Part shown: positions 1,622 through 63,689 of the stretch, piece after piece
Position numbering within the stretch: position 1 is the stretch's first letter
How the letters are laid out: each line of letters begins with the position of its first letter
Source: Promethearchaeota archaeon
Lineage (GTDB): Archaea; Asgardarchaeota; Lokiarchaeia; Sigyniarchaeales; SOKP01
Assembly (NCBI GenBank): GCA_016840085.1
Contig: JAEOTA010000086.1
Location: 96,001-160,000 of the forward strand
Direction: 5' to 3'
Length of the DNA stretch: 64,000 nucleotides
Translations under genes and position numbers: made by a program
The notes under the pieces: model-generated
Databases searched by the model: none
The model's input: only the letters and a program-made list of their open reading frames with translations
What the model was told of the DNA's origin: nothing

Positions 1622-1704
1622 CGCAATCGGTGGGATTCGAACCCACGAGTCCGTTGGACACCGGTTTAGCAGACCGGCGCTCTACCAGGCTAAGCGACGA
1701 TTGC
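1622..1704 (-). tRNA. tRNA-Ser(GCT)
   Basis: Acceptor GCAATCG/CGATTGC; anticodon arm CCGGT-CTGCTAA-ACCGG; long variable arm; GTTCGAATC T loop; G discriminator. Confidence 0.95.
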
Positions 1705-2084: not shown

Positions 2085-2195
2085 GCAGACGTAGCCTAGC
2101 TGGTAAGACGCCGGCCTTGAGTGTTATAATGAAGATTCATAATATTGATAGCCGGTGCGCGTAAGCGCTCGGGGGTTCGAGTCCCTCCGTCTGCG
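2085..2195 (+). tRNA. tRNA-Ser(TGA) with 28-nt intron at 37/38 (2122-2149)
   Basis: Acceptor GCAGACG/CGTCTGC; anticodon arm CCGGC-CTTGAG^A-GCCGG; long variable arm GCGCGTAAGCGC; G discriminator. Confidence 0.9.
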
Positions 2196-2233: not shown

Positions 2234-2307
2234 GGGCTATTGGCGCAGGCAGGTAGCGCAACCGGCTCTTAACCGGCAGGTCGGGGGTTCGAATCCCTCA
2301 TAGCCCG
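2234..2307 (+). tRNA. tRNA-Lys(CTT)
   Basis: Acceptor GGGCTAT/ATAGCCC; anticodon loop CTCTTAA; T arm GGGGG-TTCGAAT-CCCTC. Confidence 0.95.
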
Positions 2308-3151: not shown

Positions 3152-3325
3152 GAGAAGACAATTAAGAGCTAAAATCAATTAAAACTTAAGTAATTTAATA
3201 TCTTTTATGTAAAAAATTTTTCTCACATTTAATAAAAATCAATCTAAAGTGTAAAAAGATTTAAATTACAAAATTTTTATCTTTCAATAAAACTAAAAAT
3301 AGTATTTTGCGAAAGGTGAAGAATT

Positions 3326-3697
3326 ATAAAAGAACAAAGATTTAATATTCTGGTCGATTCACTAAATAGACAAGAAGGAGTTGAGGAAATTTTTCTTTTA
3401 AACAAAGAAGGAGATATCATTTTTAAATCTGGTGACTTTTCTTTATCGAATGACGAAGCTAAAGCACTACTAAATGCTTGGAAAACAAAAGAACCGTCTC
3501 TTACATATCAGAATTATCGATTTGCTATTTTAAAAAATGATGAAATCCAACTAGCAGCAAAAAATATAGCTGGTGGAAAAGGTAATATCGTTGGATCAAT
3601 TACAAAAGATGGAGATTATCTTATTGCTCATACTAGAGATGAAGGTATGATTCTGTTAGAATGGTCGATTTTTATTAATAAAGTTGCGTGGTCTTAG
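3326..3697 (+). CDS. Profilin-like protein (probable ATA start; absent from the ORF track)
   Basis: 123-codon open frame (I)KEQRFNILVDSLNRQEGVEEIFLLNKEGDIIFKSGDFSLS...SLTYQNYRFAILKNDEIQLAAKNIAGGKGNIVGS...YLIAH...; pattern matches Asgard profilins (SLxxxGxKYxIVxNxExxxxxxNxxGKG). GGTGA SD at 3315-3319. Confidence 0.75.
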   Translation: MKEQRFNILVDSLNRQEGVEEIFLLNKEGDIIFKSGDFSLSNDEAKALLNAWKTKEPSLTYQNYRFAILKNDEIQLAAKNIAGGKGNIVGSITKDGDYLIAHTRDEGMILLEWSIFINKVAWS

Positions 3698-8253: not shown

Positions 8254-9225
8254 TTAGTCGGTTCTAATTTTTCTAAGGGTTTCATAGGTTCCATAACCAC
8301 CTTTTACATCATCTAATTCAAAACTACCTAATGACTGCACAAGAATAGATTGCTTTCCTTCATTATCAGTAAAGGGCATTGGAATTATTGGCCCCACAAA
8401 AGCTTTTAATATATATTTTTGATTAGAATTATCCATCAATTCAAGCTTTGAACTAACGGGGAATACTCCATCTTCTCGAAATTGTTGGTTAAGAATTTTA
8501 ATTTTTTTTAAGGGTATGTTCTCTCCATTCCTAAACAAGAAACCTCCAGTTGATAAACGACCATCATCTGTGATTATTGCTGCAGGATTAACTGCCAAAT
8601 TTTCATTAAACCAAACAACATAATATAACCAATTACCCACTCCAATCCAATCACGAACACCATAGGTGTGATCTCTTTGACCCATGGTATTAGAAATCGA
8701 ATATTTTCTATCTCCTATAGTGATCTCTCCTTTTATATTACCAATTTGTTCCCAGTGTTTATCACCAGCTTTTTTTCCTATTTCTAATGATTCCGGAGTC
8801 ATATATTTACTATATTCATACACCTCATTAATCGGCTCAAAATCAAGATAGATTTCTACTGACTTTATTTCACTTATTAATTTCGGATTCTCGCGTACTT
8901 TTGGTAAAGTCTCTGAGTTTTGGACAATAATTATATTCCCGCTAAATTCATAATTCCATTTTCCATCAGGAAAAGAAAGATGTTTCATACCTTTAATTTG
9001 AAGATTTTTTGTATAATCTTTAATTTTAATTTCTTGATGATATCCCCCAGCAGAACCATCCGGCAAAAAAAGAAAGAAAAAAGTCATGCCCTCTTGTTTA
9101 TTAGGCTTGAATCCTATTCTTGAAACCCCTCCAATATTATAATCCTTATTAAAGAAAGCGAAATAATATGATTCATTCCATTCAGGATGAGCCGTGCAAA
9201 GATTAGAATGAGTCAAAGATTCCAC
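8254..9225 (-). CDS. AttH-like/tocopherol-cyclase-like beta-barrel protein
   Basis: WNESYYF at the N-terminus and HWEQxG...GQRDHTYGVRDW motif; GGTGA-N6-GTG start. Confidence 0.6.
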   Translation of the reverse strand: MESLTHSNLCTAHPEWNESYYFAFFNKDYNIGGVSRIGFKPNKQEGMTFFFLFLPDGSAGGYHQEIKIKDYTKNLQIKGMKHLSFPDGKWNYEFSGNIIIVQNSETLPKVRENPKLISEIKSVEIYLDFEPINEVYEYSKYMTPESLEIGKKAGDKHWEQIGNIKGEITIGDRKYSISNTMGQRDHTYGVRDWIGVGNWLYYVVWFNENLAVNPAAIITDDGRLSTGGFLFRNGENIPLKKIKILNQQFREDGVFPVSSKLELMDNSNQKYILKAFVGPIIPMPFTDNEGKQSILVQSLGSFELDDVKGGYGTYETLRKIRTD

Positions 9226-9243
9226 CTTTATTCACCTTAAACA

Positions 9244-30212: not shown

Positions 30213-31364
30213 TTAATTCTCAACCTCAAATACAATCTTAAGATATTCATACTTGGAATTAAGTAATTTTAGAACCCTTGCAGCAAAAATCTTTAGATTC
30301 TTTACGTGAAGGCTTTTATCATCTTTCTGTTCAAGTAGAAACTCATGTATCATGTTTCTAGTAGCATCAGGACCATTTTTTTCAAGATATTCCAACCAAT
30401 GAATTGATTTTCTACAAATCCTTTTTAAACTGTCATCGGGATATTCCTTTTTATTTAAGATTTTCTCATGATATTTACTTATAGCATTACTAACTTTTTC
30501 TAAATAATCAGCAATACCCAATGAATATCTACACAGACTAATTAGATTTGAAGTAATTCTAGTGTTTCTAGTATTAGTTGCTGCTTCAAAAGAAACCCAA
30601 GCATCATTCCACTCGTCCGTATTTTTACTTGATAAGCCATCATTATGTAAGGCTACATTAATCATATCACTCAGATCTACATCGTGACCTCTTTTTATTT
30701 TTTTATTAAAAATCTCTCCGAGCTTTGTTCCTTCTAGGTAACTCCCCGCTCCAAAATCGAGTAATTGATTCAGGTTATTTGCCGCACAAAGTGCTTCATA
30801 TCTCACTTCACCGGTATCGAGATTAATCCATTCCACTTTTTTTTCCCATTCACCAGTTTCTTTATTCTTTATCCAACCCATTTGCCTTAAAACGTGGTCC
30901 AACAAATGGATTTGAAAAGTCCAAAAATCAATGTCATCAGTGAATCTTTTTCTTCTCCAATCTCTAGTTGTATATTTTGCTAAATACAATTTCAGAGTTC
31001 CACGAACTAACCCAAATTTTCCATCCTTTAGTGTTTCACAAGCATCTTTATAATAAACATTATCGGGGTCTTTCGAAATTCCAACTATTCTATTAATTAT
31101 TTTTCTAGCTTCTCTGGCAACAATATCGCATGGAATAATCCCATCAGATGGATAAGCTCTTGATCCTCCATCTAAAAACTTTTTAAACAATTCAAAGTCA
31201 TTTTCAGGGATATTATACCAGGGATTATTAAATATAATCTTACTGAATACATAATGAGAGCAACCAAATTCATCCACTTCAGTTTTATCATATAAAGGAG
31301 AAACATCTCTTAATTGATCTCCTTTATGGACAGCATCAGCTTTAATATCCCAAATTGTATTCAT
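30213..31364 (-). CDS. Hypothetical protein with nucleotidyltransferase-like (AbiEii/Pol-beta superfamily) motifs
   Basis: LVRGTLKL...KRFTDDIDFW and KKIKRGHDVDLSD resemble the GG..R.T.DxD and K...R..D..D motifs. Confidence 0.55.
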   Translation of the reverse strand: MNTIWDIKADAVHKGDQLRDVSPLYDKTEVDEFGCSHYVFSKIIFNNPWYNIPENDFELFKKFLDGGSRAYPSDGIIPCDIVAREARKIINRIVGISKDPDNVYYKDACETLKDGKFGLVRGTLKLYLAKYTTRDWRRKRFTDDIDFWTFQIHLLDHVLRQMGWIKNKETGEWEKKVEWINLDTGEVRYEALCAANNLNQLLDFGAGSYLEGTKLGEIFNKKIKRGHDVDLSDMINVALHNDGLSSKNTDEWNDAWVSFEAATNTRNTRITSNLISLCRYSLGIADYLEKVSNAISKYHEKILNKKEYPDDSLKRICRKSIHWLEYLEKNGPDATRNMIHEFLLEQKDDKSLHVKNLKIFAARVLKLLNSKYEYLKIVFEVEN

Positions 31365-37093: not shown

Positions 37094-38611
37094 ATGGCAA
37101 TAAAGATCGGAACTGTATTCAATTACTTACAATTACCTGATGTATCAAATTTCCCTTTTGTTATTAAGAGAAGAAAAGACGGAATATTCGTGCAAAAAGG
37201 TTTGTTTGTTTATACGGAATCTATTGAGGGATATTTAATTGGAATTATTGAAAAAATAATACTACTAAATGAATATTTTACTGACGCATTGACGATTAAA
37301 GCTTATAATAACAATAATCCAAACATTTTAAAGGGACTTTTTCCAAGTGATGACTTTGAATTTGCAATAGCTATTGTAAAATGTTTGGGTGTGATAAGAT
37401 TCAACGATAAAAATAAGAAAAAAATTGATAGAATCCAAAGAATGACCTATCCAGCTAGTCCTGGAAGAGAGGTATACGTGGTAGATGAAGATGTTCTATA
37501 TAAATTTTTAGGATTTGATACTGAATTTGGGTTGAATGTAGGCGCCGTTAAGGTGACTAACGTGGAAGCGAAAATTAACATGAATCGATTGCTGAATAAA
37601 CATTTTGCGATTCTTTCAATTTCAGGAGGTGGAAAAAGTTATCTCACTTCAATTCTTATCGAGGAATTACTTACAAGAAGAGAGGAGTGTGGAACACCTG
37701 CTATTATATTATTTGATGTTCATGGAGAATACTCTTATTTGCAAAATATACCAGAGTTAAAAAATAAAGTTAAAATATTTGATATCTCGTATTTTCAGAT
37801 AGCTGTTCCGAAAATTTCTCTTTATTCTTTTAAAAAGTATCAAGATCAAATCTCAAATGTTCAAGTAAGAGAATTATCAAAGTATATTAAAAGATTAAAA
37901 AAGGAGAAAAAGAACCTTTATACTTTAAATGATGTTATTGAGTCAATTGAAAATGAATCTGATGGAAATAGAAATACAAAACAAGCATTAATTGGATGGT
38001 TGTCTGAACTAGAGCGTTTAACATTATTTGGTCCTCAAGAAAATCCTGTATTAGATAAGATGATAACTAAACAAGAGATAACTATTTTTAATCTTCAAAA
38101 AGAAATAAGCATTAGAAAAAAACAAATAATTTTAGATTATATAAGTAATCGTTTATTTAATCTTAGGAGATTAAATAAAATTCCACCATTTTTATTAATT
38201 ATTGAAGAAGCTCACCAATTTTCTCCTGAAGCAGCTCATTCTAAAGCTATTTCTAAGCCAATTATTGAAATGCTTGCAAGAGAAGGAAGAAAATTCATGG
38301 CATGTTTATGCTTGATTAGTCAAAGGCCAAAGAGATTAAGCACAACAGCTCTTTCCCAGTGTAATTCTAAAATGATTTTAAACATAAAAAATCCGTATGA
38401 TTTAAAACACCTTATGGATAGTTCTGAAGCTATCACGAAGGAATATGCAAATATGATATCTAGTTTGGGTGTTGGAGAAATGTTATTAATGGGAACAGTA
38501 GTAAATTATCCTGTATTTATAGATATAAGAGAAAGGAAATTTCAATCGAATATTGAAGAACTTTCTTTAGCACAAGTATGTATTGATTGGCAGAAAAAGC
38601 TATTAAGTTAA
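37094..38611 (+). CDS. HerA/FtsK-family ATPase (HAS barrel + DUF87)
   Basis: KHFAILSISGGGKS Walker A, FDVHGEY, IIEEAH, AREGRK, SQRP. Confidence 0.88.
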   Translation: MAIKIGTVFNYLQLPDVSNFPFVIKRRKDGIFVQKGLFVYTESIEGYLIGIIEKIILLNEYFTDALTIKAYNNNNPNILKGLFPSDDFEFAIAIVKCLGVIRFNDKNKKKIDRIQRMTYPASPGREVYVVDEDVLYKFLGFDTEFGLNVGAVKVTNVEAKINMNRLLNKHFAILSISGGGKSYLTSILIEELLTRREECGTPAIILFDVHGEYSYLQNIPELKNKVKIFDISYFQIAVPKISLYSFKKYQDQISNVQVRELSKYIKRLKKEKKNLYTLNDVIESIENESDGNRNTKQALIGWLSELERLTLFGPQENPVLDKMITKQEITIFNLQKEISIRKKQIILDYISNRLFNLRRLNKIPPFLLIIEEAHQFSPEAAHSKAISKPIIEMLAREGRKFMACLCLISQRPKRLSTTALSQCNSKMILNIKNPYDLKHLMDSSEAITKEYANMISSLGVGEMLLMGTVVNYPVFIDIRERKFQSNIEELSLAQVCIDWQKKLLS

Positions 38612-38875
38612 ATCAGTAATTACACCATTTCTAATGGATTGGGTATTTTTTTTAAAAACTATCATTTTCTTATTTTTTGAGACTCGAAAAACGTTAATAA
38701 TATTCATACTTTCTAATTTCATAAATATTTCTTCTAAAATCAAGGAGTTAACGAAAGGAAATTCCTTTTTTAAAAGTTCTTCAAGCCTTTTATCCAAAAT
38801 TTCTCCCTTATTTTTAATAAGTATATCGATAATTGAATTAATTACAGGTTTTTTATTCCAACGATGAGATTCTAT
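38603..38875 (-). CDS. Small winged-helix-like protein downstream of cdc48 (probable ATA start at 38875)
   Basis: Frame is open upstream of the listed TTG: (I)ESHRWNKKPVINSIIDILIKNKGEILDKRLEELL...FMKLESMNIINV; GGTGA SD 6 nt before the ATA. Confidence 0.65.
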   Translation of the reverse strand: MESHRWNKKPVINSIIDILIKNKGEILDKRLEELLKKEFPFVNSLILEEIFMKLESMNIINVFRVSKNKKMIVFKKNTQSIRNGVITDLT

Positions 38876-38961
38876 ATTATATCACCAAATATAACAATTG
38901 AGGATTAGAGATTTATTAACTAAAATAAATAATTTTTAATTTCTAAATAATCTTTTGGATT

Positions 38962-41205
38962 TCATACAAACAACCTATCTTCCTTTGATTCTTCTATTCT
39001 CCGACTTTTAAGTCTTTCACCAAATTTTTCATACCAATTAATTACTTCTGTAGTTAAAGTAGGATAAACAAGTTTTCTGGCTTCTTCAAAGTGAACCCGT
39101 GATACTTTTCTAGCTCTAATGTTCTCTCGTAATGCAATCATAGCGGCTTCACGACATAATGTTTCAATATCTGCTCCAGAAAAACCATCTATTAACTCCT
39201 TCAAAGATTCAAGTTCTATATTATTAGCTAAAGGCATATCTTTTGTAAATATTTTTAATATCTCCAATCTACCTTGTTCATCGGGAGATGTCACTAATAA
39301 TATTCTATCAATCCTCCCAGGTCTTATTAAAGCGGGATCTAAAATATCGGGACGATTTGTTGCAGCAATTACTACAATATCCTTATTTATTTCTAATCCA
39401 TCCAACTCCGTTAAAAACTGAGAAAGTACTTTTTCAGACACTCCAGAATCTGTCGTATGGCGACCTCTACTTGGAGCTATTGAATCAAATTCATCAAAAA
39501 AGATGATACAAGGAGCTGCCATTTTGGCTTTACGAAATACTTCTCTTATTGCCTTTTCACTCTCTCCAACCCACTTTGATAGAAGCTCTGGCCCTTTAAT
39601 TGAAATAAAGTTAGCTTTACTTTCAGTTGCTACTGCTCTTGCTAATAAAGTCTTACCGCATCCGGGAGGACCATAAAGTAAAATTCCTCTTGGAGGTCTT
39701 ATTCCCATACGTTTAAATATTGTTGGATGAGACAGCGGCCATTCTACTGCTTCGATCAATTTCTGTTTTAACTCATCTAATCCCCCTACTTGATCCCATT
39801 TCACATTTGGTACTTCTACAAACACTTCTCTTATTCCAGAAGGTAATACTTCTTTTAAAGCCTCACTAAAGTCGTTTCTATTCACTTCAATTTGTTCAAG
39901 TAATTCTGGATCAATTATTTCTGACTCCAAATCTATTTTAGGTAAATATCTTCGTAATGCAGACATTGCAGCTTCTCGGCATACAGCAGAAATATCAGCC
40001 CCTACAAATCCATGAGTTATTTGTGCATATTCCTTTAAGGATATCTTTTTATCAAGGGGCATATTTCGAGTATGTATTTGAAGAACTTCTAACCTACCTT
40101 TCTCATTCGGAACTTTTATCTCGATTTCACGGTCAAACCTTCCCGGTCTTCTTAAAGCGGGATCTAAACTGTTTGGTCGATTAGTAGCACCAATAACAAT
40201 AACTTTTCCTCTGCCATGTAATCCATCCATTAATGCTAGTAATTGAGCAACAACTCTACGTTCCACTTCTCCGGTAACAGTTTCTCTCTTTGGAGCAATT
40301 GCATCTATTTCATCTATAAAAATGATTGATGGACTTTTTTCATCGGCTTCCACAAAAAGCTTACGTAATTTTTTCTCGGATTCTCCATAAAATTTACTCA
40401 TAACTTCTGGTCCGTTAATCGAAATAAAATGTGCTTCACTCTCATTCGCAACAGCTTTGGCTAATAATGTTTTTCCGCAACCTGGAGGGCCTCTTAGTAA
40501 AACACCTTTTGGAGGATCAATTCCTAAACGTTTAAATAAAGAAGGATGACGTAAAGGTAATTCAACCATCTCTCTCACTCTTTGAATTTCTCTATCTAAC
40601 CCTCCAACATCTTCATAAGTTATATAATCCGCTCCTGTTTCGATATCTTCAGTAACTTTATCACTAATGTTAAGAACAGTCTCTTGTTTTATCATGCAAA
40701 CTCCGTTTGGTCTCATATTAATAACTTTAAAAGTAATTTCTCTACTGATGCCTATAGAAATAAAAATATAATCGTCAATTGTAATTGGGTAATTATTTAG
40801 TTTTCTTTTAACAAAACTTTCAAACCGTGGATTATTTCGTATTTTAACACTTGAAGGTGCTAAAACAACATTCTGAGCAACTTCTGCTTTAACTTTACGA
40901 ATTTCAAGAGTATCATCAATCCGAGTTCCAGTATTTTTTTGCAATCTGGAATCTACACGTACTATCCCTAGACCATTATCTTGAGGATAACTTGGCCAGG
41001 CAATTCCGGCACTTTGTTTCTTACCAATAACTTCAATAACGTCACCAGTTTCAATATTTAACTTTTCCATTGTATTTGGATCTATCCGAATGATATTACG
41101 CCCAATATCCCTTTTCTTAGCTTTTTGAACACGTAAAGTTACATTAGATATATTATTTTCGCGTTTATCATCAGTTTCTTTATCTTTATTGTCTTTCAAT
41201 GACAT
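38962..41205 (-). CDS. cdc48: CDC48/VCP/VAT AAA+ ATPase
   Basis: N domain plus two AAA modules (GPPGCGKT twice, DEID/DEFD, RPGRFD/RPGRID). Confidence 0.96.
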
Positions 41206-62555: not shown

Positions 62556-63629
62556 TTATATAGCAACCAACATACTCATTAAAAAAATTAGGATACCCAT
62601 TATAATATCAATAAAATAACGGAAATATTTATCACCTTTAGTTTTCTCACTAGCTTCATCAATTTTAAAATAAGTTTTAAAAATTTGAAATCCTGTGTTA
62701 ACGCCATCTTTTATCTTGGGAAATTGCCAAACTAGTAGCACAATACCAATGACCAATAACGGACAATAAAGATAAAGTGCAACAAGAGTAAAATCATTCT
62801 CTTGAATAAAACTCCAGATTGTATGAGCAGCAACTATATTATTTAATGTATGGGCGATTATAGCAGGAAAAATCCACTTTTTTTTTAATATAAATAACGA
62901 GAGAATTATTCCTATTAATAAAGCTTGTAAAAACCAAACAAATGGATACCAAAAGGGATACAATCTACTTACAGGATCAAGAAAATAAGCAAAGTGCCCT
63001 AATCCAAAAAAAATTGATGATATCATCACTGCTGACATTATAAAAAAATATTCGCTACCTCTTTTTGCTATAAGGCCTCTGGAAATTGATTCTTCAGCAA
63101 TAGATACTGAAATCTGGATAATGATTACAGAAATTAAAAATACAAAATAATTACTGGACACCAGATATATATTAGTGTTTTTTAGACTTAAAGCCAATGC
63201 TTGATATTCAATCATTTCTGGAATTAATAAATAAGTAAAAAAGTCTATAGGTAGAAAAACTAAAAAGAAAATTAATAATCCATATAAAATTTGATATTTA
63301 TAATTTTTTTTTGTCATTTTAAATAACCTTAAATGCCCTATCGAAGGGGGGATATCTTCATCAATGATAACTTGCTTTTTTTGAGACTCAAATATTAAAT
63401 TTGATAAATATAAGGTAAGTGGAATACCTATGAAAATGAATATTGCCCTCAAACCATAAAATAAAATTCCATATAAAACTGATTCTTTATTTATAAGTAA
63501 GGGAACAACGAATATTGGAATAATTAACAGTAAAAATACAAAAATAAACATAAGCGCAACTTCATATATGAAAAATCTCAATCTATCAACTGCAATCTTT
63601 TTCTTTCCATAATAAACTCTAGAAACCAT
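62556..63629 (-). CDS. CPBP (Abi/Rce1) intramembrane metalloprotease
   Basis: EESISRG, FGLGH, HTLNN motifs; multiple TM segments; GGTGA-N6-ATG start. Confidence 0.88.
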   Translation of the reverse strand: MVSRVYYGKKKIAVDRLRFFIYEVALMFIFVFLLLIIPIFVVPLLINKESVLYGILFYGLRAIFIFIGIPLTLYLSNLIFESQKKQVIIDEDIPPSIGHLRLFKMTKKNYKYQILYGLLIFFLVFLPIDFFTYLLIPEMIEYQALALSLKNTNIYLVSSNYFVFLISVIIIQISVSIAEESISRGLIAKRGSEYFFIMSAVMISSIFFGLGHFAYFLDPVSRLYPFWYPFVWFLQALLIGIILSLFILKKKWIFPAIIAHTLNNIVAAHTIWSFIQENDFTLVALYLYCPLLVIGIVLLVWQFPKIKDGVNTGFQIFKTYFKIDEASEKTKGDKYFRYFIDIIMGILIFLMSMLVAI

Positions 63630-63689
63630 TAATATTCACCTAAATTTGAATAAAAAATTATAAAATTGAAAAATTATAAACTTTTTTAT

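Follow-up and report, generated by a model that had tools for sequence, protein, structure and literature searches.

Candidate AUA start codons at a fixed distance behind a Shine-Dalgarno sequence in a genome of the Lokiarchaeia

Which codon begins a gene when a reading frame opens behind a Shine-Dalgarno (SD) sequence and no ATG, GTG or TTG follows for many codons? This question is raised by two genes in a stretch of 64,000 nucleotides (nt) from an uncultured Promethearchaeota archaeon of the Lokiarchaeia, hereafter the window, which spans C83:96001-160000 of a 4.68-Mb metagenome bin (89 contigs, 29.5% GC). One is a small gene directly downstream of a cdc48-type AAA ATPase gene, and the other is a profilin-like gene. 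A preliminary description of the window had pointed to the arrangement GGTGA-N6-ATA in front of both, in which the TGA is an in-frame stop and Nx gives the number of nt between GGTGA and the codon, and it had suggested that SD-guided AUA initiation may be a feature of the lineage; both sites are indeed present, with identical geometry. In the following, ATG, GTG and TTG are called canonical starts, and ATA, ATT and ATC together are written ATH. We propose, with a probability of about 85% and on the grounds of sequence comparison, that both genes are intact and would be translated from an AUA placed in the ribosomal P site by a strong SD. Near-cognate starts appear to be a habit of this genome and of the whole genus rather than a peculiarity of two genes. 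The codons AUA, AUU and AUC, with CUG and ACG as rarer cases, appear to act as starts when GGUG(A) lies 5-7 nt upstream and almost never otherwise; most AUG genes have no such site.

The small gene occupies positions 38603-38875 of the minus strand, with 90 codons and a stop at 38605-38603, and encodes a predicted winged-helix protein outside the Pfam families. Its SD core GGTGA (38882-38886, minus strand; TGA at 38884-38882) is complementary to the 3' end of 16S rRNA and is followed, after the spacer tataat, by the proposed ATA start codon (38873-38875, minus strand). The open frame begins two codons ahead of this ATA, and 26 codons, the ATA counted, are free of ATG, GTG and TTG before the TTG at 38795-38797 (minus strand), which is picked by a standard open reading frame (ORF) caller and would be an internal Leu codon (L of GEILDKRL). 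In the list of ORFs with canonical starts, the product has 64 amino acids from this TTG and lacks the N-terminal extension of codons 2-26 (38798-38872, minus strand). Orthologues of the small gene and of the profilin-like gene were compared across 20 genomes of the same genus. At the aligned start position of the small gene, seven genomes have ATA, 11 have ATC and one (L040) has ATG; in the copy L048, an ATG stands one codon further upstream and the SD has been lost. GGTG(A/G) is present in all 18 copies with ATH, at N6 in 17 of them and at N5 in one. The Leu at the position of the TTG is invariant in 20 orthologues, and the arrangement in which cdc48 and the small gene run towards a HerA-like ATPase gene on the other strand is kept in 20 of 20 genomes.

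The 26 codons upstream of the TTG are coding, as the substitution pattern across orthologues and a confident model of a winged helix indicate. In codons 2-26, the mean pairwise differences are 0.17, 0.012 and 0.374 at the first, second and third codon positions, compared with 0.18, 0.08 and 0.42 in the undisputed downstream part of the gene and with 0.61, 0.60 and 0.59, thus no codon periodicity, in the spacer upstream of it; the protein is conserved in the orthologues from residue 2 on. The extension had been regarded as a plausible first helix, and the AlphaFold2 model bears this out: helix 1 (residues 8-21) and strand 1 (25-27) are followed by helices at 28-38 and 44-56 and strands at 60-66 and 69-74, a topology of H1-b1-H2-H3-b2-b3, with a mean predicted local distance difference test score (pLDDT) of 80.7 overall and above 90 in the blocks covering residues 11-70. 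A start at the TTG, residue 27, would delete helix 1 and strand 1 of the winged helix. The Foldseek matches of the model are winged-helix DNA binders only (F93 of STIV, LmrR, MarR and Fur; template modelling score ~0.6, best E ~4e-3), and no Pfam family is matched at E up to 0.01. In distant homologues from three other families of the order, an ATG or GTG stands 2-9 codons before the same conserved Trp.

The profilin-like gene (3326-3697, plus strand) consists of 123 codons and a stop at 3695-3697. Its SD core GGTGA at 3315-3319, with the TGA in frame, and its proposed ATA start codon at 3326-3328 are separated by the spacer AGA ATT (plus strand throughout). The first in-frame ATG, GTG or TTG lies 107 codons after the ATA, and the gene is missing from the canonical-start ORF list. 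In 18 of the 20 genus orthologues an ATG stands at exactly the codon of the ATA, and the combination of ATA with GGTGA is found only in this genome and its closest relative, G024. Seventeen of the 18 ATG-bearing orthologues are without GGTG and have agatggag, agttggag or similar; the eighteenth has GGTGG. As to the identity of the protein, Pfam Profilin (PF00235) covers residues 9-102 with 20.5 bits (E 5.6e-4), which is under the curated cut-off of 25 bits, and a profile of 19 orthologues finds the Odin profilin 5zza (E 2e-6), the profilin 7pbh (7e-4) and the Loki profilin 5yed (0.05). The structural model, built with 19 close orthologues, is of low confidence (mean pLDDT 60.9), its topology being compatible with the profilin fold; its top Foldseek matches are Loki profilins 1 and 2 and the Odin profilin at E ~0.01, so that the fold comparison is only suggestive. 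One profilin orthologue, L077 (G021:C29), begins ATG TAA CAA and has a stop as its second codon, possibly a pseudogene, an assembly error or a case of later restart.

Two sites do not make a rule, and in the window alone GGTGA-N6-ATA is not above chance, with three matches against 1.75 expected and at least three in 32 of 100 shuffles; a match at 30799-30812 lies inside a coding region and is hence irrelevant. A scan of the genome with controls had been suggested in the preliminary description, and it gives a sharp result. The TGA of GGTGA opens an ORF of at least 80 codons at 110 sites, with a canonical codon at N6 in 24 and at N9 in 16 of them. Where no canonical start occurs in the first 10 codons, ATH stands at N6 in 28 of 52 ORFs, compared with 12 of these 52 that have ATH at codon 1 and six that have it at codon 2. 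Behind other stop-ending 5-mers, ATH is found at that position in 378 of 2834 cases (13%; Fisher p=1e-11, odds ratio 7.6). There is no excess of ATH at other spacings or with other stop-ending 5-mers, and none for the control codons AAA, AAT and TTA. While ATG is spread over spacings of 4-9, the ATH excess occurs only at GGTGA+6 (equal to GGTG+6/7). AGGTG, too, is followed by the excess at a spacing which gives no in-frame TGA, and thus the excess is not an effect of the TGA. Behind GAGG and GGAGG the excess of ATH is small or absent; the habit depends on the GGTG(A) portion of the SD. About half of the GGTGA-N6 sites that open a long ORF bear a near-cognate rather than a canonical codon. Besides these codons, other GGTGA-N6 sites (in the set L001-L037) have GTT (two), GTA (two), TTA or CTC where an ORF of 80 to ~490 codons would start, and among these cases only the GTA of a zf-AN1 gene has domain support.

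Counted over genes, GGTG followed after 6-8 nt by ATH at least five codons ahead of the first canonical codon is found in 59 of 3900 non-overlapping ORFs of at least 100 codons, compared with 9-26 at control spacings; control codons are depleted at the 6-8 nt spacing. The 59 extensions have a coding score of 0.278 bits per codon, close to the 0.264 of gene interiors, and open stretches 5' of canonical starts with an SD have 0.062 (p=0.008 against the extensions). The excess amounts to ~35-50 genes, roughly 1-1.5% of gene-sized ORFs, a lower bound that comes from one SD motif definition and counts motif occurrences, not verified starts.

Several of the genes behind such sites match Pfam families, with domains that reach up to the unusual codon and so lie far ahead of the first canonical one. 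In a ThiF-type E1-like gene, the Pfam domain ThiF covers residues 10-242 on profile positions 1-236, the first canonical codon being at 70; ATT, ATC or ATA stands behind GTGA at N6 in 21 of 21 genus orthologues, and eight orthologues from other families carry ATG and lack the GTGA-N6 motif. Counted likewise from the odd codon, Ras covers residues 2-163 on profile positions 1-161, the ornithine cyclodeaminase-like domain OCD covers 5-320, HMA 11-71 and Lactamase_B 33-226, and an Ish1/Rho_N/HeH-type match lies at 16-47. The OCD gene combines ATC with GGTGA here, and its sole close orthologue has ATG and no SD, a single contrast, as the other relatives are paralogues at ~35% identity. The gene for uS10 (L169, C88:53146-53451, plus strand) appears to start at an ATA 7 nt behind GGTGA, reading I-QKARIRL; its first canonical codon, a TTG seven codons later, lies inside the Ribosomal_S10 profile. 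Codons other than ATH are used as well: a CTG-started protein has its PIG-L domain at 4-140, and an ACG-started one its tRNA_bind domain at 13-101. Pfam was uninformative, giving either no family or one whose domain lies at a distance from the N-terminus, for L004 (inositol-1-phosphate synthase), L030 (Arf/Roc), L008, L033, L011, L015 and L003.

Taken over the families, there are ~5 independent changes of start codon and SD, all in one direction: the copies with ATH have (G)GTGA or GGTGG, and the copies with ATG are mostly without. The prediction that orthologues would show ATG at the same codon holds for one genus member in the small gene and 18 of 20 in profilin, and in other families ATG is found at or near the position. 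Of the suggestion that SD-guided AUA initiation is a lineage feature, the SD guidance and the lineage-wide occurrence are supported, by the 28 of 52 ORFs against 13% and by the covariation in orthologues; the restriction to AUA is not, as ATT and ATC occur at a similar frequency and CTG and ACG are found too.

How might such a start work? The 16S rRNA of this genome ends in GGATCACCTCCT, which makes GGTGA the core of the expected SD. In the proposed mechanism, GGUGA of the mRNA would pair with UCACC near the 16S rRNA 3' end, and this pairing would fix the codon 6 nt downstream in the P site, where the ordinary initiator Met-tRNA (CAU) would be accepted despite the third-position mismatch; as the initiator Met-tRNA would read AUA, the protein should begin with Met. 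The strong and exactly spaced SD would compensate for the weaker codon-anticodon pairing. A change from ATG to ATH in a lineage goes with the appearance of the SD, and beside an ATG the SD is mostly lax or absent. The same spacing does serve canonical starts in the window, as had been described: GGTGA-N6-GTG precedes a gene of 323 codons (9223-9236, minus strand; GTG at 9225), and GGTGA-N6-ATG precedes an ORF of 357 codons (63627-63640, minus strand; ATG at 63629). The initiator tRNA gene (C22:51652-51786, minus strand) has A1:U72, the GGG/CCC anticodon stem and an ordinary CAT anticodon. It is 135 nt long, as an intron directly follows the anticodon loop and another insertion probably precedes the T arm; a strict pattern of the initiator anticodon arm gave no match in the bin because the intron interrupts the gene, which was found by a relaxed search.

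Some points weigh against this proposal. Initiation at ATH codons, its use of Met and its efficiency are matters that we infer from sequence. The genome is a metagenome bin with an estimated contamination of 7.6%, the compared genomes are likewise metagenome bins, and the gene count above depends on its one motif. In vitro, aIF1 of Sulfolobus solfataricus reportedly discriminates against AUU (PMC4705826), so that for AUH to be used efficiently here, either the SD must compensate or the factor must be laxer. In profilin, an ATT at N3 (see below) may be the true start. Finally, in the gene for aIF1 itself, the SD-like GGTTGTGAT (GTGAT) lies 8-9 nt before its ATT, with 9 nt between GTGA and the ATT, which is beyond the N6 optimum.

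In the single gene for aIF1 (SUI1; L078/L079, C81:64195-64518, plus strand), no in-frame canonical codon precedes the zinc knuckle and SUI1 domain. Two codons behind a TAA it has an ATT, which is present in 22 of 22 genomes of the genus; seven homologues of other families show ATA, GTG or TTG there, never ATG. Such a weak and conserved start suggests, and does not show, a feedback of the infC/eIF1 type. More generally, the few strong SD sites seem to be kept largely to rescue weak start codons, with the aIF1 gene wired likewise. One may go further and suppose that the choice of start is set mainly by the distance to the SD and less by the match of codon and anticodon, so that any near-cognate codon (AUH, CUG, ACG, perhaps GUA) 6 nt behind GGUGA would initiate efficiently, and that the genes in question, among them profilin, ThiF, small GTPases, uS10 and aIF1, would form a regulon which tracks the level of aIF1 through an AUU feedback loop. 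We regard this wider scheme as tentative, a possibility with the odds against it.

The zf-AN1 gene (L170, C83:70111-71058, minus strand, outside the window) illustrates how loose the codon can be. Among 30 genus genomes, its start position holds CTG in 18, TTG in five, GTG in three, GTA in two, ATA in one and ACG in one, and most copies have it 6 nt behind (G)GTGA; the GTA is found in this genome and G024. Here the SD seems to determine the position, and the codon itself drifts. The GTA, with two mismatches to AUG, would be either a very weak start or a sign that the SD alone fixes the start.

This drift bears on the idea that the genes have a non-canonical start of another sort, either at a neighbouring codon or with an Ile-type or dedicated initiator tRNA that gives an N-terminal Ile. 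An ATT (3323-3325, N3) immediately precedes the profilin ATA, both here and in G024, and the three Ile codons are interchangeable at the start position. The tRNA set of the bin is also incomplete: Aragorn finds 7-13 tRNAs and Rfam 21 tRNA matches, many with introns. Yet the orthologous profilin ATG aligns with the ATA and not with the upstream ATT, and the genome-wide excess is sharply at N6, not at N3. The alternation of CTG, ACG, GTG and TTG with ATA at the one zf-AN1 site fits a mismatch-tolerant initiator and not an Ile-specific reader, and a standard CAU initiator tRNA is present. We therefore consider an explanation of this sort unlikely.

The view that the small gene starts at its TTG, giving 64 amino acids behind an untranslated leader that is open by chance for 26 codons, is very unlikely. 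TTG is an accepted archaeal start, which ORF callers pick, and from the stop-codon frequency we estimate that a chance open run of 26 codons would occur in about one in 10 AT-rich leaders. A leader of this kind does not account for the reading-frame pattern of substitution, with second positions near-invariant across 19 genomes, or for helix 1 and strand 1, where the blocks of residues 11-30 have a mean pLDDT above 90. Moreover, homologues of the protein in four families all contain the 26-codon segment, starting just before the conserved Trp, and the TTG is not preceded by an SD. For profilin, ThiF, Ras and OCD, an explanation by TTG is inapplicable.

Less credible still is that the ATA is a sequencing or assembly error, or a recent mutation which inactivated an ATG, so that the genes are pseudogenes. 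The ATG in 18 of 20 profilin copies would fit such a mutation, and G to A is the expected direction of mutation at 29.5% GC. However, ATH codons recur in many independent assemblies (18 genomes in the case of the small gene, 21 in that of ThiF and 22 in that of aIF1), and thus they are not read errors; the preliminary description had named ATG in raw reads as an observation that would tell against AUA initiation, and what is found is ATH in ~20 independently assembled genomes. The downstream coding sequence is under purifying selection, and the profilin change from ATG to ATA is accompanied by a new GGTGA in both sister genomes. Lastly, translation from further upstream by readthrough or recoding of the TGA, which by geometry is in frame in every N6 case, can practically be dismissed, as the same excess occurs behind AGGTG where no in-frame TGA arises, Pfam boundaries lie at the ATH codon (profile position 1 is residue 2 in Ras and residue 10 in ThiF), the upstream sequence is AT-rich with no codon periodicity and more stops, and ATG-bearing orthologues start at the same codon.

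Initiation at AUH placed by the SD would, as such, be of a known kind, familiar from bacteria and from the genetic code tables; what differs here is the Asgard host, the scale, the covariation with the SD and the involvement of aIF1. NCBI translation table 11 lists ATT, ATC, ATA and CTG besides ATG, GTG and TTG. It thus formally allows the codons seen here, yet common gene finders omit them by default. In animal mitochondria, AUA and AUU are regular starts, with AUA reassigned to Met and read by a modified tRNA-Met. The present genome is likewise AT-rich with apparent AUA and AUU starts; unlike in mitochondria, there is no sign of AUA reassignment, ATA being abundant at Ile positions in genes and the initiator being an ordinary CAU tRNA.

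The closest parallels are bacterial. In Staphylococcus aureus, starts at AUA and AUU that follow an extended SD reach 10-30% of the efficiency of AUG (PMC13009471), and the feedback on bacterial infC works through an AUU start (PMC4705826). As with these starts (Escherichia coli infC, which encodes IF3; S. aureus infC, cvfC1, ccpN and citZ), AUH here would be the sole start of an intact gene with a strong and correctly spaced SD, codon and SD are conserved among relatives, and the gene of a fidelity factor itself appears to use a near-cognate codon. Unlike in bacteria, where a handful of regulatory genes are concerned and IF3 polices initiation, the host is an Asgard archaeon with aIF1 and aIF2, and at least 1-1.5% of genes would be involved, housekeeping genes included. 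A further likeness is to eukaryotic eIF1, which is autoregulated through a poor start context (PMC4705826), as its homologue aIF1 has a weak start here. Eukaryotic near-cognate initiation differs in that it depends on scanning and the Kozak context, whereas start selection here would be guided by the SD, and the feedback is suggested by sequence. Among archaea, GGUGA-N5-AUG has been described for aEF1A of Pyrococcus abyssi (PMC6237735). Ribosome profiling of Haloferax volcanii found ~30% of novel putative start sites to be near-cognate, and these were set aside as possible false positives (PMC7261190); both are archaea with near-cognate sites, but those of H. volcanii are mostly alternative or internal and not the sole start of conserved genes. 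Among open-access papers and preprints, we found none on ATH starts in Lokiarchaeia or Asgard archaea.

If the proposed starts are used, the consequence for annotation is direct, because standard callers truncate, miss or pad proteins with near-cognate starts. The preliminary description had expected systematic mis-annotation, and all three kinds are at hand: the small protein is cut at the TTG, profilin is missed and the public record P0032 is padded. Public homologues of the small protein are all labelled 'hypothetical protein', and those at 79-91% identity carry the source names Promethearchaeota or Candidatus Lokiarchaeota archaeon. Among the best 120, the calls of this family have 88-127 residues, mostly 90-94, and their N-termini vary. 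Public calls place the start at the TTG or, in some cases, at the GTG within the SD, which is in frame when the spacing is N5; P0032 (MNK-IESNRW) is the orthologue L052 of genome G023 read from aGGTGAacaaaATC, a case of N5 spacing, and this NCBI record thus has three spurious residues (MNK) ahead of the residue encoded by ATC. Errors of this type spread to protein databases, to domain boundaries and to the tables of presence and absence from which eukaryogenesis is inferred, and a flagship eukaryotic signature protein, profilin, is missed here by a canonical-start ORF finder. The Asgard archaea have initiation factors of the eukaryotic type, yet Lokiarchaea reportedly have few SD sites (PMC12993045). 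The present genes open a long-standing question to experiment in cultured Lokiarchaeia, namely how stringent AUG selection arose from a permissive system guided by the SD.

Around the two genes, the neighbourhood is as follows. The cdc48-type AAA ATPase gene directly upstream of the small gene lies at 38962-41205 (minus strand), with its stop ~75 nt before the GGTGA. On the other side, a HerA/DUF87-like ATPase gene (37094-38611, plus strand) is convergent with the small gene, and their 3' ends overlap by 9 nt (38603-38611), an arrangement found in 20 of 20 genomes. Just upstream of the profilin-like gene there are three tRNA matches (Rfam RF00005) at 1622-1704 (minus strand), 2085-2195 (plus strand) and 2234-2307 (plus strand), of which one, of ~110 nt, probably contains an intron.

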